Notes: generated from the letters alone by a model not told the origin. A stretch of 64,000 nucleotides of DNA from a virus (IMGVR_UViG_3300036790_000408:70437-134436); one strand, 5' to 3'. Positions 1 through 35,246 are shown, numbered from the stretch's first letter. Program-made: numbers and translations.

Positions 1-610
1 ACGAAGGGGGCCCGCCGAGGGCCTGAACCGAGGCGAGGAGGTTCAAATCGTAGAAGTACCCAGCCTCCTGATCGGTGCGCCTGCCATAGCCATAGCGTCC
101 GACCCCACTGATCAGTTGGGCGATTGGCCACTGCGCCAGTTTGGTGATCGAACGCTGATAGGGAAACTGCTTCTCCTCGGTGATCGCCAGCCCGAGCTCA
201 AGCGTTACCGGGTTCGGTGAGGCCGTGTGATTGAACTGAACATTGGTCAGGACCATGACCTGGTTCGAGACCGAGGCGATGGTGCAGACTTCGGTGACCG
301 ATGGCACCAGGCGATCAAGGAGAACCGCCTCGCCGACCAAACTATCATTGTCACCGACATAGTTTGGCAGGGGCACTTGGACATTGGCGCCGGCGGAAAT
401 GGGATTGACCGAGGTGTACGTGGCCGACGGTGTCATGAAAGCCATGTACGCCGGCTGCCCGTTCGCATCCGTCTTGTAGATACAGCCCTCAGGACGCCGT
501 AGGAAATGGTCGATCAACTGACTGGCGCGGATGACCTGCGGACCAGAGGCGAGAGGTACGCCATATGTCTCGTAGTCCGTCGGGCCATCCAGATAGGAGG
601 GGAGCGGCAT
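1..610 (-). CDS. Partial virion protein (head-tail connector/adaptor-like position); runs off the window edge
   Basis: I translated the minus strand from ATG 610 (TGATG overlap with the upstream stop): MPLPSYLDGPTDYETYGVPLASGPQVIRASQLIDHFLRRPEG... It stays open to base 1. It is absent from the ORF track because it has no stop in the window. Function is inferred only from its position downstream of the capsid gene. Confidence 0.55.
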   Translation of the reverse strand, partial: MPLPSYLDGPTDYETYGVPLASGPQVIRASQLIDHFLRRPEGCIYKTDANGQPAYMAFMTPSATYTSVNPISAGANVQVPLPNYVGDNDSLVGEAVLLDRLVPSVTEVCTIASVSNQVMVLTNVQFNHTASPNPVTLELGLAITEEKQFPYQRSITKLAQWPIAQLISGVGRYGYGRRTDQEAGYFYDLNLLASVQALGGPPS

Positions 611-1023
611 CAGTCTGAATTCATGATGCAGGCGAAAGCCGCGATCGTGCCAGTCGAGCCAGAGGTGTTATCGACCTCGATCTGGAATGTCAGGAAGGGC
701 AGATCGTCCGTGATATCGACGATCAGCAGTGTGCCGGACACGATCGACGTGGTCGATATCGGCCGCGCTATGGTGCCGCCGATGTCCAGATAGCGGGTTA
801 TGATCAGGGTGCCGGCTTGGTTCATCTGAACCGCGACCGAGATAACCTGATAGCCATCAGCGAAGATGACGCCGCTTTTCCAAGACCCAGACCCGGCAAT
901 GGTCTGGCCGGCAGTCAGAATGCCATTCGGCATCGCGACGGCGGCGATCTGCATCTTGCCGGCGAGACTGATCGGCTGCTCAAATCCGCCGCTGGTTTCA
1001 TAGTCGTGCGCGGCTAAGGGCAT
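610..1023 (-). CDS. Hypothetical protein, probable virion component
   Basis: 137-aa beta-rich ORF in the head operon, translationally coupled to the next gene. Confidence 0.55.
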   Translation of the reverse strand: MPLAAHDYETSGGFEQPISLAGKMQIAAVAMPNGILTAGQTIAGSGSWKSGVIFADGYQVISVAVQMNQAGTLIITRYLDIGGTIARPISTTSIVSGTLLIVDITDDLPFLTFQIEVDNTSGSTGTIAAFACIMNSD

Positions 1024-1032
1024 GCGACTATC

Positions 1033-1308
1033 CTATGCGAACCGGTATCTATGCTGCGGTCGCTGCTTCACGGCGAAGCCATTCTTGACCAAGTACTCGG
1101 CCAACGCCTGATCCCTCACGGTACACATCCCGTCCTCGAAAATCAGATCGAAGTTCTTTGGCCGGGGCGGGATCATTGAAGCGTCCCACCACTTCCCGTT
1201 GTCAGTTTCCAGCGTGTACTGGTTGGGAAGGTGCCCCGCCGGCGAACAGCTCATGAAGTGCTTGTCGCCTGGCGGCTTATTGGGAGATCCCGAGAGATAG
1301 ACGATCAT
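1033..1308 (-). CDS. Hypothetical protein downstream of the major capsid gene
   Basis: 91-aa ORF, co-oriented, with short spacing to its neighbours. Confidence 0.55.
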   Translation of the reverse strand: MIVYLSGSPNKPPGDKHFMSCSPAGHLPNQYTLETDNGKWWDASMIPPRPKNFDLIFEDGMCTVRDQALAEYLVKNGFAVKQRPQHRYRFA

Positions 1309-1327
1309 CAGCTACCTGCGGTTGGGG

Positions 1328-2401
1328 TTAAGTGCGCTGGATGGCCACCACAGCATGCGCATACGAGGCGCCCTTGGCGACGATGGTGTCGAACTGCACA
1401 GCCACGTACTGACCGGACAGGGCGGCCGGCAGACCAAGGCGGTAGAGCTGCGGATCAGGGTTCTGCGTCTGACCAGAGATGTACGGCCGCTCGATCATGC
1501 TCTCGGTCAGGATCGCCGCGTAATAGTTCTTGTAGCCGGAGGTCGGTGCGCCGAAACCGTAAGCCGAAGACGACGACGACGGTAGATATACGTCGGCGAT
1601 GATCGGCAGCGGGCCAGCCTGGGTGTCGATGTTCTTGACGGTGACGCCGGCGACCACGGTAGAGCCCATGGTGATGTTCGTCGCCTTGGCCTCGGTATCG
1701 AGGTAGTGCCCAAGGATCGGGTTCATGTAGATCGCGGTCGGCTTCACTTTGAATGTGGTGTTCGCCATCATCTGTGCGACAGCGAACTTAATTCCATCGA
1801 CCATGGAGGAGCCAGGCAGCACGCTGGACTGCTGGGTGATCTGTGTCAGCAGGCCGACATACTGATCCGTGGTAGCCGTGGTCAGGGAGGTGTCGGTGCC
1901 GGTCCAATAAGCGGAGGCTGCCTCCACAATGATGCCGTTGACGCAATCCTGGATGTCGCGCGACTCCAGGTTATCGAACACGCCCTGCTGTTGCGTGACC
2001 TGCACGTCGAAGAGGGTCAGGTTGATCTGGTTGACCAGCGCCTTGATCAGCACCGACCGCTCAACGCGGGTCGGTCCAGACGGCGTCGGCGTCAGGTTCC
2101 TAGGATCGGTAAAGCCACCCAGCCCGATCAAGAGCTGCTCGATATAACGATGCGGGTGACCGGTGGCGCGGCGAGCCTGAATGCGCTGGCGCAGGACGCC
2201 CTCGCGGCGCACCATGTCCAGGATCTCACGCTCGTAGAGGTTCACCTCGATCGCGCCATTGCCGAAGAAGTCAGCAGCGGCGGCAACGCGCCCAAGGCTT
2301 GCGCTGTTGGAGACGGCGGACCCAAGTTGCGTCATGATCGGGTCGCCGCGGCCAGCCCAGCGCGCAATACCCACCCGATTAGAGTCGGCTATGGAGAGCA
2401 T
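1328..2401 (-). CDS. Major capsid protein (HK97-fold inferred)
   Basis: 357 aa, directly after the protease/scaffold gene in a TerS-TerL-portal-protease operon. Segments such as YEREILDMVRR and ATGHPHRYIEQ resemble phage capsid proteins I recall (not verified by search). Confidence 0.8.
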   Translation of the reverse strand: MLSIADSNRVGIARWAGRGDPIMTQLGSAVSNSASLGRVAAAADFFGNGAIEVNLYEREILDMVRREGVLRQRIQARRATGHPHRYIEQLLIGLGGFTDPRNLTPTPSGPTRVERSVLIKALVNQINLTLFDVQVTQQQGVFDNLESRDIQDCVNGIIVEAASAYWTGTDTSLTTATTDQYVGLLTQITQQSSVLPGSSMVDGIKFAVAQMMANTTFKVKPTAIYMNPILGHYLDTEAKATNITMGSTVVAGVTVKNIDTQAGPLPIIADVYLPSSSSSAYGFGAPTSGYKNYYAAILTESMIERPYISGQTQNPDPQLYRLGLPAALSGQYVAVQFDTIVAKGASYAHAVVAIQRT

Positions 2402-2444: not shown

Positions 2445-3983
2445 TTAGTTCTGGTATGCCAACAGACCAGCAGAGGCGAATTGCTTCTTCAGGTCCATCC
2501 GGATCGAGAGATCCGTCACGCCGGCGTCGGCCAGGATCTTGTCGATCTTACCGACCGGGATGGTCTTGCCATCTTCCGGCAGTTCGATGCCGTACTTGTT
2601 GAGCGAGGCCATTACGTCGGAAGGAACCGTTTTGCGGGTCGGTTCCTGACGATCTGCATTCGACGCCGCCGTGATGTCAGCGACCCTGGTCTGCATCGAG
2701 GACACCGCGTCGGCGAGCTGAGCGCTGACCTGGGTCAACTTCTCTTCCAGCGCTGTCTGACTGGCCTTGAGCGCCTTGTACTCCGGCGTCTCTTCAACCT
2801 TCTGCGCCTGCACGACGGGAGCGGCCGAAGCGAAATAACCAGAGTCGTGATAGGAGTCTGGGATCTTGCCGCGGGCGCCGTCGGCACGCATCGAGTCTGC
2901 CATCCGGCGTAGGTGGTGAGCGTGACCATTGCCGGAGACGGAGCCAACGCCATCCTGCTCCATCTTCTCGGCAGCAGCTTCAAGGCGCATAGCGTGCGGC
3001 TCTACCTTGCTCATCGCGGCATTGACGGCCATGACGATGTTCGGGGCCTTCTGCAGCTCAGCGAGTGCGGCAGCCTGCGCAGCAAGAGCGTCCGTAATTG
3101 GCTTGAGGCTCTCGGCCAGGAGACCCTTAACGGCGTCTACAGCTTCAGTCATTTCGTGCTCCTGTGCAGCCGCAGCGGCCAATGAAGTGTTCATGTACGC
3201 AGCGTCGTTTTTCATGAGGATCGCCGCGCCGGTGAAGACGCAGGATCGAATGACGATCGGATCGCCCATGGGCTGATCGACCTTCAATTCCTGTGCTTCG
3301 AAAGAGAAACCGAGCTTGTCTTGCTCAAGGTGGATCTTGATAGCTTCGCGCGGGAAGTCGGCCGCATAGATGAAACCTTCGATCATCAGCGCATCGCCTT
3401 CGATGTGCGCGGATGAAATGAGGCCGATCTTGTTCTGTGCGTCGTGCCCGTTCAGCTCTTTGGTGATACCGATACCCATCCCCATCAGGGATGGCAGGGC
3501 ACTCTCGGCAGCCGCCCTGGTCAGCATAATACGTTTGCCGAAAGCGCCATTTGGCGCGCGGTCGGACGGCGAGTCGATCCGGGTCAGAATGCCAGAGAAC
3601 GGCATCCGGTTGGGATGCCCCTCGATCGTCGGCAGGTTGAGCGACACCGCCTCGAACCGCATGGCACTGATGGTCATCAGCATGGGGCGCGCGGGGATGT
3701 CGGCGGCGGGATTTTGCTCATCAGCTCCGGCATCGACCGAGATGCCAAACTTCTTGGCTGCGCGATGAATGCGCGCCATGGCGCTTTTCTTCTCAGCCGG
3801 AGTTAGTCCCTCAGTCTGATTGAAACGCGCCAAGGCATTGCGCACATGAGCCGCATCATGGATCGGAAGTTTGCGCTTGCCCGGCACAGCGAACTGTTCG
3901 CTTCCGAGACTATCCCGATCCTTGGTGTCGAGAACCTTGGCATCGATGTCCTCGACTTCCTCGGGCTCGACTTCTGGCGGCAT
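2445..3983 (-). CDS. Prohead protease/scaffold with N-terminal DUF6582-like domain
   Basis: N-terminal KRKLPIHDAAHVRNALARFNQ; central protease-like core with a candidate His (NGHD) and Ser (LGFSFE); Ala/Glu-rich helical C-terminal scaffold; lies between portal and capsid genes. Confidence 0.72.
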   Translation of the reverse strand: MPPEVEPEEVEDIDAKVLDTKDRDSLGSEQFAVPGKRKLPIHDAAHVRNALARFNQTEGLTPAEKKSAMARIHRAAKKFGISVDAGADEQNPAADIPARPMLMTISAMRFEAVSLNLPTIEGHPNRMPFSGILTRIDSPSDRAPNGAFGKRIMLTRAAAESALPSLMGMGIGITKELNGHDAQNKIGLISSAHIEGDALMIEGFIYAADFPREAIKIHLEQDKLGFSFEAQELKVDQPMGDPIVIRSCVFTGAAILMKNDAAYMNTSLAAAAAQEHEMTEAVDAVKGLLAESLKPITDALAAQAAALAELQKAPNIVMAVNAAMSKVEPHAMRLEAAAEKMEQDGVGSVSGNGHAHHLRRMADSMRADGARGKIPDSYHDSGYFASAAPVVQAQKVEETPEYKALKASQTALEEKLTQVSAQLADAVSSMQTRVADITAASNADRQEPTRKTVPSDVMASLNKYGIELPEDGKTIPVGKIDKILADAGVTDLSIRMDLKKQFASAGLLAYQN

Positions 3984-3987: not shown

Positions 3988-4698
3988 TTACGCCGGCGTG
4001 CCGGTGGCCGTCACGGTGCCCTTCAAGGTCAACGTGCCGCCCGCATTCAACGCCGCCACATTGGTGCCGGCGACCGTGAACAGCAGATCGGTGCCACCCG
4101 AGGCGATGGTAAGTTTGCCGGTCGAGCTCAGCAGGGTGGTCGCACCCTGGAACGTGGGGTTACCGTTGGTGTCCAACAGCGCCACGTTCAAGCCGTTTGA
4201 CTGGTATTGCAATGCGTTGCCGATCTCCTGCACTTTGTCTGTGCCGAGCACAACCAGTGCGCCACTCTGGATCCCTAGACGAGTAGCGGCAATGAGCGGT
4301 TGCCCGTTGATGGTGCCGATCTGCGAGCCTGGATCGATCGTCGAACCAGAGGAACCGGAGCCACCGGTGGACGACAGCGTCAGGGCGTTCTGCAGGTAGC
4401 TGTTGAGAACGATGTTGACCGTGAGCGCGAGGAAGTTGCTCGGGACATCCGTCAGAACGGTCCAGTCCCAGTAGCAAATGAGATTGCCATTGGTCAGGGC
4501 GTCGAACATAGCGCCCTTGGTCAGCACACCACCAACCGGGCCGGTCGGGCCGGTGATCTGGGTGACGCTCTGCGTCAGACCCGAGGCAGCCGTGCCCGTC
4601 AGGCTGACCGCTTCGCGCGTATAGGTGGTCGCCTCAGAGAAAACTCCGGCGTTGGTGATGCCGATGCCGAGGGCGTACCAACCGGTGAAAACAGCCAT
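3988..4698 (-). CDS. Putative virion structural/decoration protein
   Basis: 236 aa, Gly/Thr-rich beta-strand composition, inside the head operon. Confidence 0.55.
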   Translation of the reverse strand: MAVFTGWYALGIGITNAGVFSEATTYTREAVSLTGTAASGLTQSVTQITGPTGPVGGVLTKGAMFDALTNGNLICYWDWTVLTDVPSNFLALTVNIVLNSYLQNALTLSSTGGSGSSGSTIDPGSQIGTINGQPLIAATRLGIQSGALVVLGTDKVQEIGNALQYQSNGLNVALLDTNGNPTFQGATTLLSSTGKLTIASGGTDLLFTVAGTNVAALNAGGTLTLKGTVTATGTPA

Positions 4699-5551: not shown

Positions 5552-5561
5552 TGATGCCTCA

Positions 5562-5852
5562 TTAGGAGAAGAGAAAAATCTCGATTGTCTCACCGGTAAG
5601 GTTGCCGGAAAGCGCAGCAACATTCAGCGTAAAACCGGTGTTGGTGGGGCTGCTGATGAAGGCGACAGCGGCCTCCTTCATGCAGGGAATAGCGATATAG
5701 GGTGTTGGAACCGGCTCCGTCCAAGTGACTGCAACGGTCGCTGTGCTGGCACTTCCGGCATACGTCGCCGAGACTGAGCCGATGCAAATCCTATCCGCGA
5801 GGTTCGGCAGCAAGCCGTCCGGCGAATAGGCGGTATGAAAAGCTACGCCCAT
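5562..5852 (-). CDS. Hypothetical virion-associated protein
   Basis: 96 aa, beta-rich, coupled to the portal stop codon. Confidence 0.55.
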   Translation of the reverse strand: MGVAFHTAYSPDGLLPNLADRICIGSVSATYAGSASTATVAVTWTEPVPTPYIAIPCMKEAAVAFISSPTNTGFTLNVAALSGNLTGETIEIFLFS

Positions 5853-7309
5853 CAGGGATCTTCCTCGGGTTCGAATGATGCGGCCAGGCGCGGTGGCGCA
5901 GGCCGCGGATTGGCTCCTGCGGCAGGCTTCGCTGGACCCACGGTCGGCGGTTGCTGCGGTCTCGTCTTGTTGGAGGCGAGATCTGGATCGTCGATTACCG
6001 CTGTACCCTTGGCCGCCTGGATGGCGATGTCGGCGTCACTCTTGGTCATGTCACCCCAGGCATTCTCGGCCGGGGCTTCACCAAGCTTTCGGCGGATTTC
6101 GTTCGGGGTGAAAACGTTCGCGCCGTAGTACCGCGTCAGGATGGTGGAGGTCTTTTCCAGGTCTTCCCGCTCAACACCCTTCCACAAGAACCGAAGTTGA
6201 GAGAACCCAAGAGCACCCCAGACCACCTTGCGGGTGAGAGCGTTGGCCAGCACCGTTGCCATCGGCTTGATAGCGTGGATCCACTCTCGATCCTCACCAA
6301 CTTCGGCCGTGCTCCGGTTGACGTCACGTTCCAGGTTCAGCGACATGTTCGAGATGTCGAACGCAGCCGCGACCTCGGTGCGAATGAATTCCTGGTATTG
6401 CAGATAGAGCGCTTTGTCGCCCTCAGGGTAGAGCTTCTGCACCGCCAACCCGCGAGTGCGCCCAGCCCCAGCCTGCCCGTCCACCAGTTCGGTGCCGATG
6501 ATCGGGATCTTGCCCTGACCTTCGATCTCGTTGGTCCAGTACGTGCGCCACGTTTCGACCATGCGGGTCGAGACTTCGCCAAGGTCGATGGCGAACGGTG
6601 GCAGTGCGTTGCCGGCCAGCTTCGCGGCGAATGAGGCTGTGGCAAGCTGGTTCGAGATGCTCTGGAAGGCAACTTCGAGCGGGCCGTAGCCAAACGGCGA
6701 ATGAGTCGATGGATTGGGTCGAATGTAAACGATCTCGTCGTCACGAAGCTTCACGCCGGGCTGCTGGCCTTGGGTGAAGTTGCCGCCATAGCCGAGCGTT
6801 TGTAGGTAGCGCGGCTCGTTCTTACCGCCCTTCCAGCCAGGGAAGATGTTGATCGACAAACCGTCCACCGGCCACAGGAACACCGGGCGATCCGGGAACT
6901 CTGACTTGCCAATCTCGATCACACCGGCGCCGAGACAGACATCGTTGATGACCTGGCTCAACAGGGTGTTGAAGCTGTCATCGTCGTTCGGCAAACTGAA
7001 ACACAGCGTGGCGACTTCGATCTGTCGCCTGATCTCCGAGTTGGGCGATATGCCCTTGTTCGGAGCGATCTCCCACTCAAGCTGGGATAATGGGTTCTTA
7101 ATCGTATTGATCGCGCGGCGGGCGATCGGCGTGTTGGAGAAATAGCGCAGGTTGCGCGGGGTTGGTTTGTAAACAACGCGACTGGATTGAGTGTACGCGT
7201 TCTGCCCAATCATGATCAGATTGGGGAAGGCGATCGACTCTCGTGTCGGCTCCTTGGTCGGTCGACCCAAACGCCGGGGCCGCCAGGTGAAGATATCCTT
7301 GACTGCCAC
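5852..7309 (-). CDS. Phage portal protein
   Basis: 485 aa after TerL. Portal-type segments include LWPVDGLSI, EIVYIRPNPSTHSPFGYGPLE, RTEVAAAFDIS and FTPNEIRRKLGEAP. Confidence 0.88.
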   Translation of the reverse strand: MAVKDIFTWRPRRLGRPTKEPTRESIAFPNLIMIGQNAYTQSSRVVYKPTPRNLRYFSNTPIARRAINTIKNPLSQLEWEIAPNKGISPNSEIRRQIEVATLCFSLPNDDDSFNTLLSQVINDVCLGAGVIEIGKSEFPDRPVFLWPVDGLSINIFPGWKGGKNEPRYLQTLGYGGNFTQGQQPGVKLRDDEIVYIRPNPSTHSPFGYGPLEVAFQSISNQLATASFAAKLAGNALPPFAIDLGEVSTRMVETWRTYWTNEIEGQGKIPIIGTELVDGQAGAGRTRGLAVQKLYPEGDKALYLQYQEFIRTEVAAAFDISNMSLNLERDVNRSTAEVGEDREWIHAIKPMATVLANALTRKVVWGALGFSQLRFLWKGVEREDLEKTSTILTRYYGANVFTPNEIRRKLGEAPAENAWGDMTKSDADIAIQAAKGTAVIDDPDLASNKTRPQQPPTVGPAKPAAGANPRPAPPRLAASFEPEEDP

Positions 7310-7331
7310 GAGCGCCCTCCGGACTAGGGCG

Positions 7332-7850
7332 CTATGGCTTTATCGCACACGCCCAGTCTTGCCTCATGACCAGCACGTCGAACCGCGCATGGATTGCCTT
7401 GCGCCCGCCGACTGTATCCATGTCGTCAAATGCCATAACCCCGCCTGACACCATGCGCGGCCAGAAATTATCAATCACCGCCAGCACGCTTTGGTACTGG
7501 TCGCAGTCACAATGCACGAAGGCGACTTCCTGCACATCATCAGTCAGGGTGCTGGGGAAGACGCCGGCGTGAAAGATAGCGTCTGGAATGTAGGCCTGAA
7601 CGTGCACCAGAGAGGTGTTGGAGAAATCCCCGACCTTGTGTGTATCGAAGTCCTCAGCGTGCGGCATACCAGAGAACGTGTCGTAGAGGTGTAGATCCCG
7701 CTTTTGCGTCCTGGCAACTCTGGATAGATACCAAGCCGATCCGCCCTGGAAAACGCCAACCTCGACGAAGGCGCCGGGAGGCGCGTCGAAAGCGATACTG
7801 GTCAGACAGGCTATCCTGGCTTTGTGGATGACCGAATGTGGAGGTGTCAC
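7332..7850 (-). CDS. TylF/MycF-family O-methyltransferase
   Basis: Motifs GAFVEVGVFQGGS, LYDTFSGMP, FVHCDCDQYQS and GGVMAFDD. The GTG start overlaps the TerL stop. Confidence 0.82.
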   Translation of the reverse strand: MTPPHSVIHKARIACLTSIAFDAPPGAFVEVGVFQGGSAWYLSRVARTQKRDLHLYDTFSGMPHAEDFDTHKVGDFSNTSLVHVQAYIPDAIFHAGVFPSTLTDDVQEVAFVHCDCDQYQSVLAVIDNFWPRMVSGGVMAFDDMDTVGGRKAIHARFDVLVMRQDWACAIKP

Positions 7851-11682: not shown

Positions 11683-11985
11683 ACATGGGATGTCCGGAAT
11701 GGAGGCGTGAAGCGTCTCAGCCCCACCTCTGGGGAACATAGTTCTTTTTATGATGCTGGGGTGAAAGCGTCGTCAAGCATTTGTTCGTGCGGGAAAGTTC
11801 ACATCGGCCCAAGCGCCACGACAAATATGTCACATAGACGCCCAAACATGCATGGATAATTATTGGGCATATCAATGTGTTGGAAGCTTTCCGCGCACCA
11901 GCTTTTCACTTCGTGCGCGGATCATGGTGTGGGTGAAATATTTTATTTTGGGCAACCCAGGGAAAGCGAATCGGGTACGCGCATA

Positions 11986-12537: not shown

Positions 12538-12583
12538 TATGGTGGGGAGTTTTTACCACCCATAAAAGGCTCGTTCAAGAAAA

Positions 12584-12865: not shown

Positions 12866-12904
12866 TCAGCAACAGCATAGGCATACCCTCTAATGTTTCG
12901 CAAT

Positions 12905-18593: not shown

Positions 18594-18595
18594 CC

Positions 18596-19686: not shown

Positions 19687-19700
19687 AGGAAAGAAACTAC

Positions 19701-26101: not shown

Positions 26102-26700
26102 ATTACATGGATCAGGATATGGGCGGCGAAGGCATGCACCCACACCGGCATAATCCAGGTGGGAAATCCAAACCGGCCTGGGATAAACGGTCCATCGTCT
26201 CCGCGGTATTCTCCGACTGCGACCGCTACCGCTACGAGTTGATCGAAACGTGGGATCCGCGCGGCCCCAAGGTGATGTTCCTGATGATGAACCCATCGGT
26301 GGCAGGACTAGAGCACTCCGACCCAACGCTCGTTCGTACCGGGAACTATGCTCGCAAGTGGGGCTATGGGTGTCAGATGGTCGGCAATGTCCACGCCTAT
26401 CGCGTCACTGATAGCAAGGAGCTATTGAAGGTCGCTGACCCGATAGGACCGGCCAACGATATTGCTATTCTGCGCATGGCGGGGGAGTGCTCCGAGATCA
26501 TCCTCGGGTACGGCATGCCGCCCGGTCAACCGAGACAGGTGGCAATCGCGAGACAACAATCTAAAAGAATTATTGAAGTTCTCAGGAACGCTGGAGCGAA
26601 CATAAAGTATCTGGCATTATGTAAAGACGGAATAACACCAAGACATCCGCTGTATCTCAAGGGGGATCTACTCCCTCAACCCTACCTTGTGGAGGCATGA
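26098..26700 (+). CDS. DUF1643 family protein
   Basis: AVFSDCDRYRYEL, FLMMNPS, DPT, GNVHAYRVT and PRHPLY. Confidence 0.8.
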   Translation: MNYMDQDMGGEGMHPHRHNPGGKSKPAWDKRSIVSAVFSDCDRYRYELIETWDPRGPKVMFLMMNPSVAGLEHSDPTLVRTGNYARKWGYGCQMVGNVHAYRVTDSKELLKVADPIGPANDIAILRMAGECSEIILGYGMPPGQPRQVAIARQQSKRIIEVLRNAGANIKYLALCKDGITPRHPLYLKGDLLPQPYLVEA

Positions 26701-27045
26701 ATGCCATTCGACAACACACCAGACAGGCTTGAGACATCCATAACGACTTTGCTGAGAGGGACCAAGGAACGCATCAAACACCATGAGAATTGGTGCCAAG
26801 GCGTACTACGGATGCGTGGGAGCGCTATACCAAAGTACTGCTTACTTGGAGCGATGGATGTAGCTAAAATTGAGATCAGATCATCATGGGATGATGTGTG
26901 GGCGGCCACGGAAGTCGTCCGTAATGTCGCGATAAAACGTGGATATAATTCCCCAGCCGAGTTTAATGATGCGGATGAAACCACCCACACAACAATCATG
27001 GATGCTCTCGACGAGGCCATCTGGACCTCCATGGAGGTGATATGA
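26701..27045 (+). CDS. DUF6197-like phage protein
   Basis: WCQG...CLLGAM...FNDA..TH pattern. Confidence 0.5.
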   Translation: MPFDNTPDRLETSITTLLRGTKERIKHHENWCQGVLRMRGSAIPKYCLLGAMDVAKIEIRSSWDDVWAATEVVRNVAIKRGYNSPAEFNDADETTHTTIMDALDEAIWTSMEVI

Positions 27046-27458
27046 AACCTCTGTTCGGTATCTCATCTCTGGTGCTGATGATCGTCGCCGGTCATCCGGC
27101 ACCGGTAGCAATTCCACCCGATCCGATGATCATCCGGGTACACCTCCCATCGGGCTATCCTGATCCAGACGGCAAGATACAGGCGTGGATGGTCCGTCAA
27201 AAAAATATGAACGGCGGCTCATGCTGCGATCCAAATGACCACACCGCCATTCTCGAGAACGAACAATGGAAGATCGACGTCGACCATTATAGCGTCAAGG
27301 TAAATGGAGTTTGGGTCAGCATCCCACCCTACACCTTACTCCTGCATCGAGACACCGATCCAAACCCGACCGGCAAGGGAGTGCTTTGGAGCGGCTTCAA
27401 TAGGAATATGCCAGGACAAGTTGTCATCTACTGCTTTGCCCCAGGCACCGGCACATGA
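27042..27458 (+). CDS. Secreted Cys-containing hypothetical protein
   Basis: Signal peptide, GGSCCDPND, NPTGKGVLW and IYCFAPG. Confidence 0.6.
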   Translation: MKPLFGISSLVLMIVAGHPAPVAIPPDPMIIRVHLPSGYPDPDGKIQAWMVRQKNMNGGSCCDPNDHTAILENEQWKIDVDHYSVKVNGVWVSIPPYTLLLHRDTDPNPTGKGVLWSGFNRNMPGQVVIYCFAPGTGT

Positions 27459-27631
27459 GCCTCTCTCCAGAGAATAAGGAATGGATCCGGGACTGCATGA
27501 TGCAGCGCAAGCGGGTCTTGAAGGGTGAGTACGTCCACTGGTGCCCCGAGTGGGATGAGCTGCCGATGGATGAAACCTGCATGGAGTGGCCGTGCGGCTG
27601 CTCCGTCAGTGACGCAGCCCTTCGGAAATAG
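27455..27631 (+). CDS. Small Cys/His-rich hypothetical protein (58 aa)
   Basis: Translated by hand: MSLSPENKEWIRDC...HWCPEWDELPMDETCMEWPCGC. ATGA-coupled to the upstream gene. Confidence 0.45.
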   Translation: MSLSPENKEWIRDCMMQRKRVLKGEYVHWCPEWDELPMDETCMEWPCGCSVSDAALRK

Positions 27632-30600
27632 ACCGCGACTGCGCACGCTCGTGCGCCGGATACGCTCGCTCCATCGTCACGTTCATCTGTCGGCCCTGCA
27701 CCATGTTCCTGATGTGAGAATAGGTCATCGGTGGCGTTCGGTTCACCGTTTGGTGCAGGGTCTTCAACGCTCCGCGGCGGATCTCGGTCAGCCGGTCGAG
27801 TAGGCCGAGGGCCGAGTCCATCTTCGTCTTGGTGGCGAACTGCTTGGCGACATTGGCCCATTTGTCGTCGAGAGTGATGTCGTGCAGATCATTGATCGGC
27901 CGCGACTCCTTGACCGCCAGTCGCTCGGCCGACTCGCTAGTGATCAGCCAGGAGCGCTGCTGATGCCGGGTGTTGCCGGTGTACGCCTGCGCGCCAGTGA
28001 CGCCATGGCTGCCGGATGGCAGTGCTAGGATGTGCTCGCCGACCGATGAGCCCTGCGCCGTATGGATGGTCGTGGCGTCGCCGTAGGCCAGCATAACGCG
28101 ACCAGAGTTCACGTGCTTCGAGGTCAACGAACTCCACTCCACCCGCCCCACGACACCGTCTGAGTTGCGAAGGAGAAGTCCCCTCTGTCGATCGGCGTCG
28201 ACCACATCGAGTACCGTGCCGTTGCGACCGATCGACCGCATCGTGCCATTTGGCAGCTCGGCCTTGGTGGACTGGAATAGCCGCACCTTGTCACCGACCG
28301 CGATCGATAGGAGATAATTGCGATCCCCGTCGGTGGCCTTGATCCCCATGACCTTGTCAGGCCCGACCAAACTCATTTCCCGCCTAGCTTCCCTGACCGC
28401 CATGCCGATCTGATGCGCGTCGGAATTGGTTGGAGCGCTGATCGTTGGAGCGTGCCCGGTTTCTTTGAGGCGCTCAATGTAGAGCTTGGCGGTGCGCTCG
28501 ATCACGCCGGCCCGGCCGCCGTAAGCCATCTCCGCGGTGCCGTCGTCGCGCTTCATACTCAGCGCTTGGTGCGCCTCGCCACGCCGGAGCAGATTGACGA
28601 TCGAGAGCTCTCGCTCAGTTTTCTGGCGGACGGTCGTCAGGATCTCAGGCACCTGGGATGGGCCTAGGGCGCGACGGGACAGCTCAATGATCGCTCCAGC
28701 CTCGATGCTGGCGCACTGCTTGTCGTCGCCCAGCGCTACCACGGTGAAACCAAGACGGTCCTGCGCGCGCATAAGATGAAGGGCCTGCCGAGTACCGAGC
28801 AGGCCCCATTCGTCGATGGCGATGACGGTATTAGTGCCGGCGCGTATGATGCCCTTATCGAACCCCTCCATCAAGACCGAGAAAGCTTTGACGTTGCGCT
28901 TGTCGATGCCAGCGCCACGCAGATCGTCCGCCTGACGCCAAGCCAGTGAAGCACCAAGAACTTCCCGTCCCTGCTCTTTCCAGGCGGCTACAAGCGGTTT
29001 CAGGAGCGTCGTTTTACCGCTGCCTGCAGCGCCGACAACAACTCCGAACCTGGCACCAGAAGCAAGGCGCTCCATTGCGGCTTTTTGGTTTTTGCCGTGC
29101 TCACTGGCGAAGTCCAGATCAGGGAACTGAGCAATTTTTCGCTCAAGAAGGGAGCGAGGAATGGCTCCGGTTTTATCGCCGGCCGCGGCGCGCGCGAGGC
29201 GCACGAACTCTCGCTCATCCGTCTCATGGAGGGAGGTTGTGACACTGGTGTACCGTTGGTTCCGCTCCTGGCCCCATACCAGGTTCGTTAACTCACCATA
29301 CTGGAGAACGCCGCTTTTTACCATTTCATGGGTAACATGTCTGATATCCGTCAGATTGTTGGCGCCATGCTCAATCAGCCCGCGCAGCGCGGCGAGGCGC
29401 AAATCCCAGTGTGGTACAACTGCACTATGCTCAAGTTTTTTTTCGAGCCATGGCAATGCAGTCTCGTATGCCTTCTTGTAGCGCTGCTCCGGCGTCAGTG
29501 GCGGGAGTTGCGGGCCGATCAGTTGAAAGGTTCGAGGGGTCCAGCCGACTTCCTTGGCTTGCACCTTCCATCCGTCGAAGTCAGCCAGATCGTCCTTGCC
29601 TCCCTTGACCTTCTGGTCGAGGCTTTGGGTGGCTCGCTTGATCCGCTCTTGACGCTGAGGCTCCGCCAAATCCTCCCAGACCTCACCCTTCTGCCGGGTG
29701 TAGAGCATAGCTATCGCTTCGCCGGCGTTGGTTCGCTTGGAGAATATGATCCGCAGGTCATCTGATATGGCGGTCATGCGGGCGGCACCGGTGCGCTCAT
29801 CCAACACCACCTCGAAACCAACTTCGCGCAACTTGGTCGCCAGCCGCGCCTGATAGTATCCATCCGCCTCGAAAATGAAGCCCTTGATCGCTTCGGTGTC
29901 GAGCGAGCCAACGTGGCCGTTGGGGCAAAAGACGGCATTGGGGATCAGGAAATGGGTATGGATACCAGGATCCCCGCGAACCTCCTTGTCCGGCTCAATC
30001 ACCACTTGGCCGTTCCGCACCGACACCATGGTCTTGCGGGCGGTATGGTGGGTGAACTCCAGCCACGCGACATAGCCGGCCAGGAAGCCATCCTTGCCGC
30101 CGTCGCCGAGTCTGGCGTGGCCAACCTCCGAGGCGATGTACCCGACCGCCTCACGCGCTGCCTCGATATGCGCGTTCATGAGCATGGCCTGCTCAACCGG
30201 TCCGGCTAGGGCCCAGGCCACTGAAACGCTCTTGTCCGGCGTCGGGCAGAAATCATAGGAGCCGATCGGCGTGCTCCATTTGCGCTCGCCGGTCTTCGGG
30301 TTGACCGGCATCTGACGTTCGGTCGCGTACTTCTTGTCGGCGATCTGGCTGCCATCAGCCTTACGCCCCGCCAATAGAGCCGCGACCTCGTCCTGCCGCA
30401 GTGGCCTGGTGTTGTCGATGCCAAGCCCCACCAGCACCGACGGATGAATGTCTGGGCGCACGATGGCGAGGTGACCGACCTCGTCAGCTTTCGACTCTTT
30501 GACATCGACCCGGTACATCTCACGATTGAGAGCCACGTCCCACTGCTTCATGGTGCGGCTCATCATCTGCTCGATCTCTCGGGACGACTTGCCGATCAGA

Positions 30601-31013
30601 TGGTCGGGACCGGGATCGATCTCCGGTATGCCGTGCAGCGCACGGGCCTCTGGGGGGATGTCGGCGCCCCCGCTCTCCCGGTGCACCGCGGCGTTGATAC
30701 CGGCCTGGAAGTCGCTCCGCAGCCTGTCCTCGACCTCCTGCACCGACATCGCGGCATCAGGCGCCGCGGCATAGGCGGCAATCAGATCGACATTCGGCGC
30801 CACGCGATCATCCAGCCACATATGAACGTGGTCATCGATCTTCTGCTCCCGAATGATCTCGTGCGCCTCTTCGGCGGTGGTCGCCGCCATGCCGCGCTCG
30901 TAGTACGCGGCGACCCTGGAGCGCTCCTGGCTCATGGTCAGGTTCATGAGGTGGTTGACCATCCCCGAGGTAGATGACGGCGCGCCACCGGCGATTTTCT
31001 GGAAGCCGATCAT
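27606..31013 (-). CDS. MOBF (TrwC/TraI-type) relaxase-helicase
   Basis: N-terminal AAYY, YDFCPTPDKSVS, FTHHTAR, and GDPGIHTH (3H motif); helicase Walker A GAAGSGKTT, IDEWGL, LGDDKQC, VRQK and AYGDATTIHTAQGSS. Confidence 0.92.
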   Translation of the reverse strand: MIGFQKIAGGAPSSTSGMVNHLMNLTMSQERSRVAAYYERGMAATTAEEAHEIIREQKIDDHVHMWLDDRVAPNVDLIAAYAAAPDAAMSVQEVEDRLRSDFQAGINAAVHRESGGADIPPEARALHGIPEIDPGPDHLIGKSSREIEQMMSRTMKQWDVALNREMYRVDVKESKADEVGHLAIVRPDIHPSVLVGLGIDNTRPLRQDEVAALLAGRKADGSQIADKKYATERQMPVNPKTGERKWSTPIGSYDFCPTPDKSVSVAWALAGPVEQAMLMNAHIEAAREAVGYIASEVGHARLGDGGKDGFLAGYVAWLEFTHHTARKTMVSVRNGQVVIEPDKEVRGDPGIHTHFLIPNAVFCPNGHVGSLDTEAIKGFIFEADGYYQARLATKLREVGFEVVLDERTGAARMTAISDDLRIIFSKRTNAGEAIAMLYTRQKGEVWEDLAEPQRQERIKRATQSLDQKVKGGKDDLADFDGWKVQAKEVGWTPRTFQLIGPQLPPLTPEQRYKKAYETALPWLEKKLEHSAVVPHWDLRLAALRGLIEHGANNLTDIRHVTHEMVKSGVLQYGELTNLVWGQERNQRYTSVTTSLHETDEREFVRLARAAAGDKTGAIPRSLLERKIAQFPDLDFASEHGKNQKAAMERLASGARFGVVVGAAGSGKTTLLKPLVAAWKEQGREVLGASLAWRQADDLRGAGIDKRNVKAFSVLMEGFDKGIIRAGTNTVIAIDEWGLLGTRQALHLMRAQDRLGFTVVALGDDKQCASIEAGAIIELSRRALGPSQVPEILTTVRQKTERELSIVNLLRRGEAHQALSMKRDDGTAEMAYGGRAGVIERTAKLYIERLKETGHAPTISAPTNSDAHQIGMAVREARREMSLVGPDKVMGIKATDGDRNYLLSIAVGDKVRLFQSTKAELPNGTMRSIGRNGTVLDVVDADRQRGLLLRNSDGVVGRVEWSSLTSKHVNSGRVMLAYGDATTIHTAQGSSVGEHILALPSGSHGVTGAQAYTGNTRHQQRSWLITSESAERLAVKESRPINDLHDITLDDKWANVAKQFATKTKMDSALGLLDRLTEIRRGALKTLHQTVNRTPPMTYSHIRNMVQGRQMNVTMERAYPAHERAQSRSISEGLRH

Positions 31014-31016: not shown

Positions 31017-31790
31017 CTATTTGAGATGCATCACCGTCTCGGCAAGCAGATCATCGAGAAGGTCGGTCGGCACCAATCTCTCCTCGAATTTCTCTGTGAT
31101 GTTCTCATTGTCTCTGAACCAAGAGGTAATGAATTCATTCAGATAAGTGGATCGGTATAGCTCTTTCTCTGGTGAGAGCATCTTGAACCGCAGCAGCTTG
31201 TTGACCTCCCTCTTTAGCTCATGCGGCAGCGTCATGGCCGTCGTGATGTCGAGGAGCCTCACTGGAGGCATCCGCATGGGGTGCATCTGCATCCACATGA
31301 TGCAGAGGATCGGCCGAAGGGCGTAGAGGTATTCTTTGCAGGTATGGTCACCGGCGAAAACCTCCTGGAGGTGACCCTTCGAGTTATTCTTGGCAAAATT
31401 GACGTAGTGATGAACAAGAGCTTTGGGCGAAAAGTACTCGTACATGACGTCGAGTAACTTGCCCTGGAACCCGTATTCGTCGGCGTAAATGATAGGCGAC
31501 CGAAGCCACTCCAGCAGCGCTGGGTTCGACTTCTGAGCCAATACAAGTGCCTTGCGAATGTCCCACCCAGAGTAGTCGTATAGATCACCATCTTCCTCGA
31601 AACGCAACGTCTTGAGGGAGTCATGGATCACTAGGTAACCGTTCAGGTTCTTGGCGAATATGAAGCGCACATCATAGTCGCTGTCAGGCGACTGGAAGCC
31701 CCACGCACGACTGCCGCTCTCTGCGGCGAAGAGAAGGTGCAGGCTATCAGCCTCAAGCCGATCCTGCAGCTTGGATATGTTGATGGTCAT
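31017..31790 (-). CDS. DNA polymerase beta superfamily nucleotidyltransferase (YcgL/RlaP-like)
   Basis: ESGSRAWGFQSPDSDYDVRFI, GWDIRKAL, KSNPALLEWLRSP and YLYALRP. Confidence 0.85.
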   Translation of the reverse strand: MTINISKLQDRLEADSLHLLFAAESGSRAWGFQSPDSDYDVRFIFAKNLNGYLVIHDSLKTLRFEEDGDLYDYSGWDIRKALVLAQKSNPALLEWLRSPIIYADEYGFQGKLLDVMYEYFSPKALVHHYVNFAKNNSKGHLQEVFAGDHTCKEYLYALRPILCIMWMQMHPMRMPPVRLLDITTAMTLPHELKREVNKLLRFKMLSPEKELYRSTYLNEFITSWFRDNENITEKFEERLVPTDLLDDLLAETVMHLK

Positions 31791-32279: not shown

Positions 32280-32677
32280 TGAAGATCGGCGTCGTCAGCA
32301 ATTAGGCCTTTGGCCTTCGCCAATTCCAGTCCAGCCGCACAACCACCCTGGCTAGGGAACCAGAAGAGACTGGTTTCGTCACCGTCCTTTGAAATAGCAA
32401 TCCTGACATAAACGATCTGACCATCGTCATCCTTCTGGACGTCGACTGTATCCGCCACACCGCCAGCACGAAGCGCCTTGTGTGCCGCGTCGGGGGTTCG
32501 TCCCATGCGACCACCCACCGCCTTACTCGCCTCAACGCATCGCCCGCTACCGAAATCCAGAATCCACCACACCCGCGCCGGTGGCTTTGATGCAACCTTG
32601 TCCGGTGGCGCCGCGTGGCTGGTGGCGATGGTGAGCGCCAGAGAGGCGACGGCGGATAGGATGGTGAGCGTTTTCAT
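32276..32677 (-). CDS. Secreted hypothetical protein
   Basis: Signal peptide ending SHA-A; two Cys. Confidence 0.6.
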   Translation of the reverse strand: MKTLTILSAVASLALTIATSHAAPPDKVASKPPARVWWILDFGSGRCVEASKAVGGRMGRTPDAAHKALRAGGVADTVDVQKDDDGQIVYVRIAISKDGDETSLFWFPSQGGCAAGLELAKAKGLIADDADLQ

Positions 32678-33432
32678 TGTGGTTCCTCATGATGGATGTA
32701 AGTTTCGTTGAATTGAGCCGCGCAAAGATTAGCGTGCATCTGAACCAACTGCCGGTATCCAGGACTGACGTGCTTGTCGGCGCATAAGAACAACTGCAAT
32801 TTGGAGCCATCATAAAAGGAGAAATATGCCGTTCGCCCCAGAACGAGCACCTTCCCCGTAAACACGCATGATGGACATTGAAACTGCAGAAGTTCCTTGG
32901 CCTTTGGGCTAAAGGTAGCCTTGTCGTCAGAGATATCATTGAGGAGCGCGAGATCGCCGTGGTGCTCCTGCGCGAGCCGATTATAGGCCCTTGCGGCATC
33001 CTCTGCGGTGACATGACAATAACTGGTGTACCGTTTTCTCTTACAAGAAACGCACGCTTTATACAGCCCATCAGGCATTTCTTGAATGCCGTGATAGCCG
33101 ATAGTGTTGGACAACAGGCGACGACGATGCAGAACACTCTCATGAGGCGTTAACCACCGAAGATTGTCCCGCCGATTGTCCAGTGGGTCGTGGTTTCTAT
33201 GATCCACGAACAGAGAGCGACCTGGAACCGTCATGAACGGGTCCATGACCTCTCTCTGCATCTCCCGGCAAATAGACTTCTCGGCAGACCAGATCATCCT
33301 CTGAGCGTACCACGCACCTCTCCGACCCTTTTTCGGTGACCAATCATAGCGGGCGATGCGATCGTAATCGCAGTCGTCGACAACGGCCACGAGGCCATTT
33401 TTCAGCGAAATCTCTTGCATGAAGCGGTTCAT
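32674..33432 (-). CDS. HNH endonuclease with AP2 domain
   Basis: VDHRNHDPLDNRRDNL (HNH) and GYHGI...YKA...AEDAARAYNRLAQEHHG (AP2). Confidence 0.85.
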   Translation of the reverse strand: MNRFMQEISLKNGLVAVVDDCDYDRIARYDWSPKKGRRGAWYAQRMIWSAEKSICREMQREVMDPFMTVPGRSLFVDHRNHDPLDNRRDNLRWLTPHESVLHRRRLLSNTIGYHGIQEMPDGLYKACVSCKRKRYTSYCHVTAEDAARAYNRLAQEHHGDLALLNDISDDKATFSPKAKELLQFQCPSCVFTGKVLVLGRTAYFSFYDGSKLQLFLCADKHVSPGYRQLVQMHANLCAAQFNETYIHHEEPQ

Positions 33433-33483
33433 AGGCGTATAATTGGATTATTGTCAACGATCGTTTTTGATTATTCTTGCTCA

Positions 33484-33510
33484 GCATCGCGATGCATATT
33501 GTCTTTCGCT
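33484..33510 (+). other. Candidate oriT nic site (MOBF type)
   Basis: GCATC-GC-GATGC hairpin immediately followed by ATATTGTCT. Compare the R388 nic: GCACC-GAAA-GGTGC then GTATTGTCT/. Lies between the divergent relaxase and Stb-like operons. Confidence 0.6.
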
Positions 33511-33637
33511 AATCCCCCCTCTACCCAAACTCCAAAACCATCCCAACTTCAAACCTCACCATGCGCCAAACGATCAAACACAAGCGCATCAGCATATTCC
33601 ATTTGACACACATACGAACATATGTCATCGTGTTTGA

Positions 33638-34009
33638 ATGTCAGATGATAACTTCCAACAGCATGCCAGGGCGCACCTAGCCGCCGCACTCGCCCGTCGA
33701 TCAACCCAATATCGCTGGTTCTGGGATAACTGGGATTGGTTCCAAACCGAGCTCAAAAAGACGCCTCACCCGGATTGGGATGCGTTTGCTGAAGCGATGG
33801 GCAAGCTCGGAATAACCAACGCGCGCGGTGGTACACCGACCGCCAGCACCACACGCCAGACCTATGGCCGGATCAAGAAACTCAAGCTGAAACAGACCGA
33901 GTCAGATCAGCCTGACGTGGATGCTCCCTCTCTCGCACCCAACCTGCCGGCCGCCGACTTGGCTGGTGGCTTCTCTCTGCGCCCACAAAAACCAATCCAA
34001 AAAGGATAA
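33638..34009 (+). CDS. StbA/TraK-like oriT-adjacent DNA-binding protein
   Basis: First gene beside the candidate oriT; RRSTQYRWFWDN..DWDAFAEAM..G..PTASTTRQTY. Confidence 0.55.
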   Translation: MSDDNFQQHARAHLAAALARRSTQYRWFWDNWDWFQTELKKTPHPDWDAFAEAMGKLGITNARGGTPTASTTRQTYGRIKKLKLKQTESDQPDVDAPSLAPNLPAADLAGGFSLRPQKPIQKG

Positions 34010-34012
34010 TCC

Positions 34013-34858
34013 ATGGCGTCACCCCTCCGACTGATCCGCACGAACCTGAACCGGCTCCTGGGATCGGATGAAGAGCCGGCCGAGGTGCCCCTGGTCATCG
34101 ACCGCATTGTCGGTGATGAGCAACCTGAGGCGCGCGTTCGGTCCAGCCTCGATCTGACCGGCAAGGATAAGCTGGTGATGGTCCTCGGTGCAGGATCGTC
34201 CGGCAAGACCACGCTGATGCGCTGGATCACAGAGCGCACTCTGAACGATGGCAGGGAGCTGTCGATCGCCACCACCGATGTCGGTCGGGCGACCCTCCGT
34301 CGATTTTTTAAGGATGCTGACGGCCCCACCAATGAGGCGGGGATCAATCTCTGGCTCGAGGGCCTGTTCGGCTTCCTGATCCGGTCACCAATGACGGCCG
34401 CGGTCGATTTCCGCGCCGACATGACGCTGGTGCCGATCCTCGAAGGCGTACCCGATATGCACCGTATGTTGGAGCGCGCCGGGGTGCACCCGGTGGTGCT
34501 CTACATGCTGACACCGCGGGTCGAGGATTTGACCGTGCTGCGCGCCATGGAGGCGGTGGGGTTCCAGCCCAAGGCTACGGCGCTGGTGATGAACGTCGGT
34601 AAGGCGATCAACCCAGCCGACGCGATGGCTGAGTTTCGAGCGATTCGCGCGCACTCGCTGTTCCAGTCGGTGGTCAAGCGTGGCGCGGTGCAACTCTGGA
34701 TGCCAAATCTCGTACCGGCCCGCGATATCGAGAACGCCGGTCTGTCGTTTACCGACACGCAAAAGCTAGAGACCGAGCCAGTGACCGCATCGCGGACGTT
34801 CCACTGGCTGCGCGAAATGGAGATGGCCTTTGACCCGATCGCCACCTGGCTCCCCTAA
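34013..34858 (+). CDS. StbB/TraL-like ParA-superfamily P-loop NTPase
   Basis: VMVLGAGSSGKTT, IATTDVG and AAVDF; second gene of the oriT-adjacent operon. Confidence 0.65.
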   Translation: MASPLRLIRTNLNRLLGSDEEPAEVPLVIDRIVGDEQPEARVRSSLDLTGKDKLVMVLGAGSSGKTTLMRWITERTLNDGRELSIATTDVGRATLRRFFKDADGPTNEAGINLWLEGLFGFLIRSPMTAAVDFRADMTLVPILEGVPDMHRMLERAGVHPVVLYMLTPRVEDLTVLRAMEAVGFQPKATALVMNVGKAINPADAMAEFRAIRAHSLFQSVVKRGAVQLWMPNLVPARDIENAGLSFTDTQKLETEPVTASRTFHWLREMEMAFDPIATWLP

Positions 34859-35246
34859 CCCTGTCGTCGAGTTTCCCGCCGCCAAACAGGCGATCGTCGG
34901 CCGGCTGCTGACGGCGGATCCTCTCAAGCCGGTTATCGACAGCCTGCACACAGCCCTCGACAAATTAGAGGCGGCCGAACAGCGTGCCAACGATAAGAAC
35001 GACGCAGCCTCCGACAAGGCTATGCGCGACATCCTCAAACGACTTCCAGCAGCGGTGGATAAATTATGCCTAGAGATGTACTGGAACAAGGTAGTGGCGG
35101 CCGGTTTCGTCTTGATATTCGGCTGCTCGATTGGCTTTGGGATCGGCTGGTACTTCGGCCACGATCCGTGGGTGATCACTCGCTGCGACGTACAAGAGGG
35201 AGCAAACATCTGCTCGGGGTGGATGTCGACGCCAATCAGCAGGTAG
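34830..35246 (+). CDS. StbC/TraM-like membrane protein
   Basis: Helical N-terminus plus one C-terminal TM segment; third gene of the operon. Confidence 0.5.
   Translation: MTRSPPGSPNPVVEFPAAKQAIVGRLLTADPLKPVIDSLHTALDKLEAAEQRANDKNDAASDKAMRDILKRLPAAVDKLCLEMYWNKVVAAGFVLIFGCSIGFGIGWYFGHDPWVITRCDVQEGANICSGWMSTPISR

Follow-up and report, generated by a model that had tools for sequence, protein, structure and literature searches.

Gene content of the locus

The stretch of DNA considered here, which we call the window, is 64,000 nucleotides long and comprises bases 70,437-134,436, the final 64 kb, of the 134,436-bp contig IMGVR_UViG_3300036790_000408. It contains the head and packaging genes of a tailed phage on the minus strand and, set back-to-back with them, an operon for a type IV secretion system (T4SS) whose virB genes run on the plus strand from 13,061. 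A coupling protein gene, a relaxase gene, a candidate origin of transfer (oriT) and an Stb-like operon follow. A first-pass annotation had read this arrangement as a single element with two transmission machineries, one for virions and one for conjugation, and at the level of sequence and of comparison with relatives we support this reading; each refuting condition listed with it was checked, and the outcome pointed to one element. The genome is that of an uncultured contractile-tailed soil phage, complete at ~134.3 kb, and its conjugation module is, as judged from sequence, an old, integral and selectively maintained trait of the phage lineage. Positions below refer to the window unless genome positions are specified.

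The head operon lies on the minus strand. The small terminase TerS (9228..9758) matches phrog_309 (E 6e-5). The longest open reading frame (ORF) for the large terminase TerL spans 7847..9415, while the 465-aa gene calls of relatives suggest a true start near 9244; the protein has the Walker A motif GAAGGGKS, 7,982 homologues and 45% identity to TerL of Bordetella phage BPP-1. The portal protein (5852..7309) matches PF04860 (E 1.4e-34). The major capsid protein (1328..2401, 357 aa) matches nothing in Pfam, in PHROG or among 50,697 GenBank phage records; it was assigned the HK97 fold from an AlphaFold2 model built on a 36-sequence alignment (predicted local distance difference test, pLDDT, 85.5), to which Foldseek assigns probability 1.0 for the SPO1, HK97 and T5 capsids. 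These four identifications agree with the first-pass annotation, which had also named a protease-scaffold ORF. That ORF encodes a 512-aa DUF6582 protein (2445..3983; PF20223), a probable prohead protease-scaffold fusion. The label holds in part: in the model, long coiled coils follow a beta domain, but its confidence is low (pLDDT 58.6) and its structural match to the T4 gp21 prohead protease is weak (E 3e-3). Next to it is a head protein (3988..4698) with weak matches to Gp80-like proteins and phrog_240. An N6/N4 DNA methyltransferase that is kept in relatives (10384..11739; PF01555, E 4e-21) lies at the end of the operon. Several TerL relatives (P0007, P0020, P0032 and L010 10001-12004) are 640-850 aa long and carry Hom_end or LAGLIDADG domains, which suggests terminase inteins.

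Tail genes, whose presence the first-pass annotation had made a check of its reading, were found just upstream of the window on the same strand (genome 55.5-68.2 kb). They encode a sheath (phrog_23), a baseplate wedge (phrog_6) and further tail proteins, and a fibre-like protein of 2769 aa is also located upstream of the window. The genome thus has the HK97-fold capsid, portal, large terminase and tail (sheath, baseplate and fibres) of Caudoviricetes.

The T4SS operon, on the plus strand throughout, begins with VirB1 (an SLT lytic transglycosylase, PF01464), the VirB2 pilin (PF04956) and VirB3 (PF05101) at 13061..14361. The VirB4 ATPase follows (14267..16831; PF03135, Walker A GHTGLGKS), with a likely start at 14348 that gives 827 aa. 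Then come a VirB5-like protein (16828..18258; PF07996 on residues 53-229), VirB6/TrbL (18509..19465; PF04610) and a VirB7-like lipoprotein of 57 aa (19701..19874), recognized by its LAGC lipobox and its position, where a 123-kb relative (JGI 3300079560) has a 55-aa ORF. VirB8, VirB9 (CagX) and VirB10 (TrbI) occupy 19754..22550 (PF04335, PF03524, PF03743), the VirB11 ATPase 22786..23835 (PF00437, Walker A GATGAGKT) and the VirD4 coupling protein 24233..25669 (PF02534 at E 1e-84, PF12696, PF10412; Walker A AKTRSGKT). All eleven VirB genes and the coupling protein that the first-pass annotation had named are therefore there in canonical order. A VirB4 with an intact Walker A motif, a coupling protein and the accessory set VirB1-B3 and B5-B11 make this a mating-pair formation system of type T (MPF-T).

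Two features of the operon deserve comment. VirB5 has a C-terminal extension of ~240 aa that is rich in Gly, Ser, Thr and Pro; a 36-kb relative (JGI 3300064043, L013 13175-15547) has, between VirB5 and VirB6, a gene for a protein of 790 aa with a GH5 (cellulase) domain. Both may be adaptations of the pilus tip or the cell surface. Between VirB10 and VirB11 there is a gene for a small membrane protein with hydrophobic helices (22547..22789, plus strand), which is just 36% identical to the copy of the 123-kb relative. In R388 and pKM101 the entry-exclusion gene occupies this place, and by analogy the protein is a candidate for that function. A search of ten small ORFs of the module against NCBIfam gave nothing useful.

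Between the head and T4SS operons lies a serine recombinase of the resolvase/invertase type (11986..12537, minus strand; 183 aa; PF00239, E 3e-34). It is the only one in the genome and is kept in the 123-kb relative. Beside it, a small minus-strand ORF (12584..12865) has an N-terminal motif that reads as ribbon-helix-helix-like (SVSLPEELWDAI), and the 123-kb relative has a 67-aa ORF at the same position. Its product could be a regulator of the T4SS operon or a TrwA-like accessory protein of the relaxosome. A promoter scan of 11600-13200 gave no sigma-70-like site.

Relaxase and candidate origin of transfer

The relaxase is encoded at 27606..31013 on the minus strand and combines a TrwC domain (PF08751, E 3e-33) with a C-terminal superfamily 1 helicase (AAA_30, PF13604, E 2e-33). 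Of 121 homologues, 108 share its Tyr motif AAYYERG (residue 35); the other motifs are DFCPTPDKSVS, HHTAR...DPGIHTH with the His triad and the helicase Walker A GAAGSGKT. A residue-level alignment to TrwC was not possible because phmmer found no match to the relaxase among PDB sequences, so the motifs were read by eye, and the catalytic roles of the Tyr and His-triad motifs are presumed from the TrwC motifs. With this architecture the earlier assignment to the MOBF relaxase-helicases stands. The closest cultured homologues are on plasmids: MobF of Roseomonas (50%) and Skermanella (46%), then those of Acidiphilium, Acetobacter and Lichenicola. An insert of ~150 aa (residues ~45-190) separates the Tyr motif from the remaining TrwC domain. 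Most plasmid homologues align with the relaxase only from about residue 186, and one Skermanella plasmid MobF aligns from residue 1.

The relaxase gene is abutted by a gene for a RlaP-family nucleotidyltransferase (31017..31790, minus strand; PF10127, E 2e-61), which is kept in the 123-kb relative. The family is of the pol-beta type and belongs to an RNA-repair pathway; we know of no RlaP-type partner in plasmid relaxosomes. On the VirD4 side, DUF968/HNHc, DUF1643 and DUF6197 genes and a secreted 138-aa ORF (25703..27458, plus strand) have identical content and order in the 123-kb relative.

Between the relaxase operon and a divergent operon of three genes lies a spacer of 206 bp (33432-33638). 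It contains the candidate oriT (33476..33513, plus strand), which reads GCATCGCGATGC-AT-ATTGTCT-TT, with a palindrome at 33484-33495, the nic core ATTGTCT at 33498-33504 and a predicted nick after 33504. The TrwC substrate of R388 is GGTGCGT-ATTGTCT/AT or, in its longer form, GCGCACCGAAAGGTGCGT-ATTGTCT/ATAGCC, the slash marking the cut (PMC4176350). All 7 nt of the core are the same in the two systems, and in both an inverted repeat precedes the core. TATTGTCT occurs once in the 64-kb window. Synonymous sites are saturated between the genes of the window and those of the 123-kb relative. In an alignment of the two spacers, ~45 bp around the candidate oriT have only two differing positions, and the remaining spacer is diverged. 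The nic-like site noticed earlier is thus retained here as a predicted site, at 33484-33504. By analogy with R388, the side with the Stb-like operon would lead in transfer and the relaxase gene would come last.

The HNH endonuclease gene (32674..33432, minus strand; PF13392) and orf133, a secreted 133-aa ORF at 32276-32677, are both missing at this site in the 123-kb relative. We therefore regard the two as a mobile homing-type insert beside the transfer origin.

The divergent operon (33638..35246, plus strand) consists of orf123, then a gene for a ParA/MinD-like P-loop protein (34013-34858; Walker A GAGSSGKT), and then the membrane-anchored orf138. It is kept in the 123-kb relative as proteins of 121, 280 and 114 aa. 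The look-alikes of the middle protein in the Atlas (feature score 0.96, TM 0.84) are ParA/MinD-like clusters, among them a 'mobilization protein' cluster and PRK13886; its P-loop and its place beside oriT would suit an StbB-type ATPase. None of the three genes has a Pfam or NCBIfam family match, and no HMM family speaks for StbA or StbC. Of the StbABC/TraKLM-like operon originally proposed, the middle gene is accordingly borne out as ParA/MinD-like, but the other two are without family support.

On the predicted leading side of oriT there are a Lar-like ORF and a T5orf172 protein (36315..37241, plus strand). Phage-type genes within and between the transfer operons had been part of the first-pass annotation, and DUF968, DUF1643, HNH, T5orf172 and DUF3850 (46475-46702) were all found again; only Lar is doubtful, its match (36333-36491) being under the cut-off. 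The module is embedded in phage DNA, with phage-type genes on both flanks and inside.

Genome and assembly

The ends of the contig share an identical 127 bp, so the genome is circular, as the first-pass annotation had wished to see established, with 134,309 bp and 58.7% GC. In IMG/VR it is recorded as viral, with direct terminal repeats, and its completeness by CheckV is 100%. The Logan contigs, assembled independently from what is probably the source run (a soil metagenome), include one of 134,339 bp. It has 0 differences from the window over 5000-24999 and a flat depth of 16.2, and its ends fall inside VirB4 (~14743-14772), i.e. it is the same circle opened at another point. Because a separate assembly reproduces the circle with a permuted start and even depth, a chimeric join at the head/T4SS junction is no longer a concern. 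Since sequencing runs other than the source have only ~5-6% of words in common with it, with short contigs 90-95% identical, the habitat is named here only by the source label, 'soil metagenome'. No RNA data set was among the runs listed as containing the sequence.

The conjugation module (~22 kb) has a GC content of 0.589 and a tetranucleotide correlation r of 0.977, inside the range of the other segments of the genome. From this uniform composition and from its distinct VirB4 clade (see below), the module is judged not to be a recent acquisition. A search of the whole genome gave no tyrosine integrase. No integrative and conjugative element (ICE) flanked by att sites turned up, no direct search for att repeats having been made across the module borders. 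What was found is hence not what an ICE inserted into a phage would look like: there is no integrase, only the 183-aa resolvase, and the composition is that of the rest of the genome. The earlier statement that transposase, integrase and flanking repeats are lacking is right for tyrosine integrases, but it had overlooked this small serine resolvase.

Relatives, selection and phylogeny

TerL homologues 66-94% identical to that of the window are found on long contigs from other samples, and all four of the contigs that were fetched (4/4) share the head/T4SS junction. On the 123-kb contig of JGI 3300079560 (L020), TerL is 91%, VirB4 79% and the relaxase 79% identical. The corresponding values for TerL and VirB4 are 77% and 61% on a 65-kb contig of Logan SRR29078258, 76% and 37% on the 36-kb contig of JGI 3300064043 (L013), and 66% and 27%, the latter on fragments, on a 136-kb contig of ENA ERZ25039592 (L009). 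In ERZ25039592 both VirB4 and portal are split; since this long-read contig splits the portal gene too, we attribute the splits to sequencing frameshifts, not decay. The fifth relative is a 57-kb Logan contig with TerL at 94% and relaxase at 93%, both proteins listing a 57,170-bp contig as the longest. The five nearest relatives from other samples thus keep both modules, in the same synteny on the four contigs that were fetched; such relatives were what the first-pass annotation had proposed to look for.

The 123-kb relative keeps the far border as well. The relaxase, RlaP, oriT, the Stb-like operon, Lar, T5orf172, a TPR protein and a 1535-aa protein are all there, and only the HNH gene and the neighbouring ORF are missing. 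In comparison with this relative the ratio of nonsynonymous to synonymous substitution rates (dN/dS) of the T4SS genes is 0.09-0.24 at a dS of 0.9-2.7, which is saturating; it is 0.09 for VirB4, 0.11-0.15 for VirB8 to VirB10 and 0.11 for VirD4. Other phage genes give 0.03-0.24, with 0.03 for the portal (94% identity) and 0.04 for TerL. The T4SS genes are under purifying selection.

In the VirB4 tree the protein falls in a fully supported clade of 18 rows that come from metagenomes only, and the sister clade (support 90) holds a third VirB4 in a phage context. Plasmid VirB4s from cultured Rhizobiales and Acetobacteraceae fall into a clade apart and are at most 41% identical. There is no real VirB4 homologue among the 50,697 GenBank phage records. 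A search of 185,579 species genomes, made for VirB4 with two peptide patterns only, found no VirB4 of this clade; in the same genomes there is no close phage relative, TerL identity being 52% at most. At 80 bacterial-genome loci with a related TerL (again 52% identity or less), none (0/80) has a T4SS gene within 10 kb. The VirB4 search of IMG/VR contigs gave no relatives, and the TerL search of IMG/VR and JGI metagenome contigs gave only a 4.6-kb fragment at 72% and relatives at 32-44%.

Replication, host and other genes

The genome has DnaB, DUF1376, ERF and SSB genes for replication, and no family-A DNA polymerase was found; from its gene content it looks like a temperate-style replicon that depends on a host polymerase. 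DnaB (genome 10592-13048, L014) carries a LAGLIDADG intein-like insert.

The host is probably a soil alphaproteobacterium of the Acetobacteraceae/Rhodospirillales, as suggested by the cultured homologues of the relaxase, by protein clusters named Rhodopila, Roseicella and Falsiroseomonas at ~50% identity, and by the tail sheath matches to Ralstonia and Komagataeibacter phages.

The set of methyltransferases is rich. It includes the TylF-type enzyme in the head operon (7332-7850), the N6/N4 enzyme at 10384-11739, two enzymes of the class-I SAM type and an MT-A70 enzyme whose N-terminus resembles ParB_N, further loci being 44793-46049 in the window and 35352-36679 in the genome. This fits heavy protection or modification of DNA. 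A dCMP deaminase and a QueE-like ORF are also encoded. On the predicted leading side of oriT, a protein of 1530 aa (39667-44259) matches no family, and its one Atlas lead, to viral esterases of the GDSL/SGNH type, is sub-threshold; its neighbour is a TPR/GT9-like protein (38309-39937), and both are kept in the relative.

Comparison with known systems

The transfer region resembles that of the IncW plasmid R388 in several respects. The relaxases are of one family and pair a TrwC domain with a helicase at the C-terminus. In both systems an inverted repeat precedes the nic core ATTGTCT, the oriT (a candidate in the phage) is placed in the spacer that divides the relaxase operon from three divergent genes, one of them for a ParA-like ATPase, and the set of VirB1-11 and type IV coupling protein is complete. 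However, the sequence similarity is low, the phage relaxase has its ~150-aa insert after the Tyr motif, no StbA or TrwA homologue was recognized in the phage, and the carrier is a tailed phage of 134 kb as opposed to a plasmid of 34 kb. The nearest cultured homologues are on conjugative plasmids of Acetobacteraceae, Azospirillaceae and Rhizobiales (MobF 46-50%, VirB4 37-38%), for example Roseomonas mucosa NZ_CP034904, Skermanella NZ_CP067421 and the Agrobacterium and Rhizobium plasmids with VirB4. In contrast to these plasmids, which have not been reported with virion genes, the phage VirB4s belong to a separate, long-stemmed clade known only from metagenomes. The phage TerL has no plasmid match above 46%.

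The phage-plasmids of the P1, N15, SSU5 and VP882 groups are likewise circular; they encode a full tailed virion and some genes of plasmid type, and they lack an integrase. Those known so far carry Rep and Par but are devoid of conjugation systems (Pfeifer et al. 2021, PMC7969092). The phage described here is the opposite case, with a full conjugation system and no recognizable Rep or classical Par. By TerL (37-46%) the closest phages are the Bordetella phage BPP-1 group, Planktothrix phage PaV-LD and Aphanizomenon phage CL131, and by the tail sheath (31-35%) Ralstonia phage Hyacinthe and Komagataeibacter phage phiKX1. None of them has VirB4, and the lineage described here has no isolated member.

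We know other examples in which one DNA molecule is linked both to virion genes and to conjugal transfer. The E. coli cointegrate p1002-1 is described as a fusion of two recognizable plasmids (bioRxiv 10.1101/2025.03.14.643293), and Phi1207.3 of Streptococcus pyogenes is called a 'conjugative prophage' (PMC4260502). The module here is old, compositionally ameliorated and conserved in its lineage. Prophages have been described on conjugative megaplasmids (PMC12934698), and a single-cell survey mentions in passing viral operational taxonomic units with T4SS or relaxase hallmarks (bioRxiv 10.64898/2025.12.20.690322). According to a 2025 review, spread by virion and conjugation combined had not been found. 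The literature that we found has passing mentions of 'conjugative phage-plasmids' only, and nothing on a phage lineage with a conserved MPF-T and MOBF module.

Interpretation and alternatives

We have little doubt that the module belongs to the phage genome and is intact and conserved. Our preferred explanation, a lineage of self-conjugative phages whose genome does move by mating, is a weaker claim, which on the present sequence evidence we find somewhat more probable than its opposite. The strongest form of the idea, a self-conjugative virus lineage whose whole genome would be transmitted in virions and also through its own T4SS, we hold to be evenly balanced between true and false.

If the genome does move by mating, the most likely mechanism would be the following. 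With the phage genome present as a circle in the cell, the relaxase would nick the plus strand after ATTGTCT (33504) and stay on the 5' end. VirD4 would then pass the relaxase-DNA complex to the T4SS channel, and the channel would deliver the whole genome, in single-stranded form, to a cell in direct contact, the 'early' side with the Stb-like operon, Lar and methyltransferase genes entering first and the relaxase gene last. Such a phage could spread in virions and also by mating, which needs no receptor, and the transfer might take place during plasmid-like carriage or before lysis.

Several observations speak against a virus that mates. Two further relatives (TerL 64% and 58%; contigs of 136.9 kb and 125.9 kb) have no T4SS in the 10 kb around TerL, which is the part that was checked. 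Conversely, a contig with a VirB4 of the same clade (L012) has regulators upstream and no head genes within 10 kb. The identity of VirB4 drops much faster than that of the head genes, the relatives with 66-76% in the head (L009 and L013) having 27-37% in VirB4. Because of this drop, the module may be swapped between elements and not be strictly vertical; replacement of the cassette at a fixed site and fast vertical evolution are equally likely. The nic core is preceded by a palindrome of just 12 bp, and the VirB2 match to PF04956 scores 20.2 bits, under the curated cut-off of 27.9. On the side of lifestyle, searches for three families of plasmid Rep, Rep_3, RepC (RP-C) and RPA, were negative; there is no AAA_31 ParA, and ParB_N is only a weak match inside the MT-A70 methyltransferase. 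No lysis genes or repressor were identified, with a weak helix-turn-helix match and no match to Phage_lysozyme. Since no Rep or classical partition genes were found, it is unproven that cells carry the phage stably and so allow time for mating, and 'phage-plasmid' in the strict sense is unproven as well. Of the first-pass label 'candidate conjugative phage-plasmid', one element with both machineries therefore stands, but the plasmid Rep and classical Par that the name implies were not found.

Several other explanations can be suggested. The one that survives best, unlikely as we consider it, is that the module is functional and does something other than move the phage genome. It could mobilize other DNA (of the host, of satellites or of plasmids), secrete DNA or effectors, or build a pilus or adhesin that recruits hosts. 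The long low-complexity extension of VirB5 and the cellulase-domain protein inside the operon of JGI 3300064043 would suit such a role, and exaptation of T4SSs for effector delivery and DNA release is known. On the other hand, the phage genome itself encodes a full MOBF relaxase-helicase and a coupling protein and has a conserved nic-like site to match, and in known systems the replicon that carries such a set is its substrate. In addition, no effector-type genes were recognized.

Less probable again is that a conjugative plasmid absorbed a phage, so that the virion genes would be captured and possibly defective or similar to a gene transfer agent. Plasmid-like features are the Stb-type operon with its ParA-like protein, the resolvase and the missing integrase; replication relies on DnaB, DUF1376 and SSB with no family-A polymerase found, and prophage-carrying conjugative megaplasmids are on record. 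Nevertheless, none of the three plasmid Rep families was found, while the virion set is complete and includes the genes under the strongest constraint, portal and TerL. HNH endonucleases, the DnaB intein and the many DNA methyltransferases are phage-like, as is a size of 123-137 kb, which is shared with the relatives that have no T4SS near TerL. Moreover, the module is flanked by phage genes at either end, and no att site or integrase that would bound a prophage was found.

A decaying remnant of a conjugation system, without present function, seems very improbable to us. It might explain why the VirB2 and Lar matches are under the curated cut-offs and why VirB4 and portal are split in ERZ25039592, but the genes are all full length, the Walker A and relaxase motifs are intact, dN/dS is low across the operon at saturating dS, and the splits are those already ascribed to sequencing frameshifts. 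Finally, a chimera or a recent insertion of an ICE or plasmid into a phage contig, which a short-read metagenome assembly would normally invite one to suspect, is refuted by an independent assembler returning the same circle with 0 differences and flat depth and by a head/T4SS junction common to four other assemblies, a fifth having both modules, the composition being uniform and no integrase having been found.

Implications

Phages and conjugative elements are usually treated as two separate engines of horizontal gene transfer. If the lineage described here does transmit its genome by both routes, the boundary between a phage and a conjugative element would be blurred. Mating would provide a receptor-free mechanism for the expansion of phage host range and would allow a phage to spread without killing the donor. 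It would also affect how elements are sorted by classifiers such as geNomad and CONJScan. Given a defined candidate oriT and a relaxase, the question 'can a virus mate?' is one that can be directly tested.

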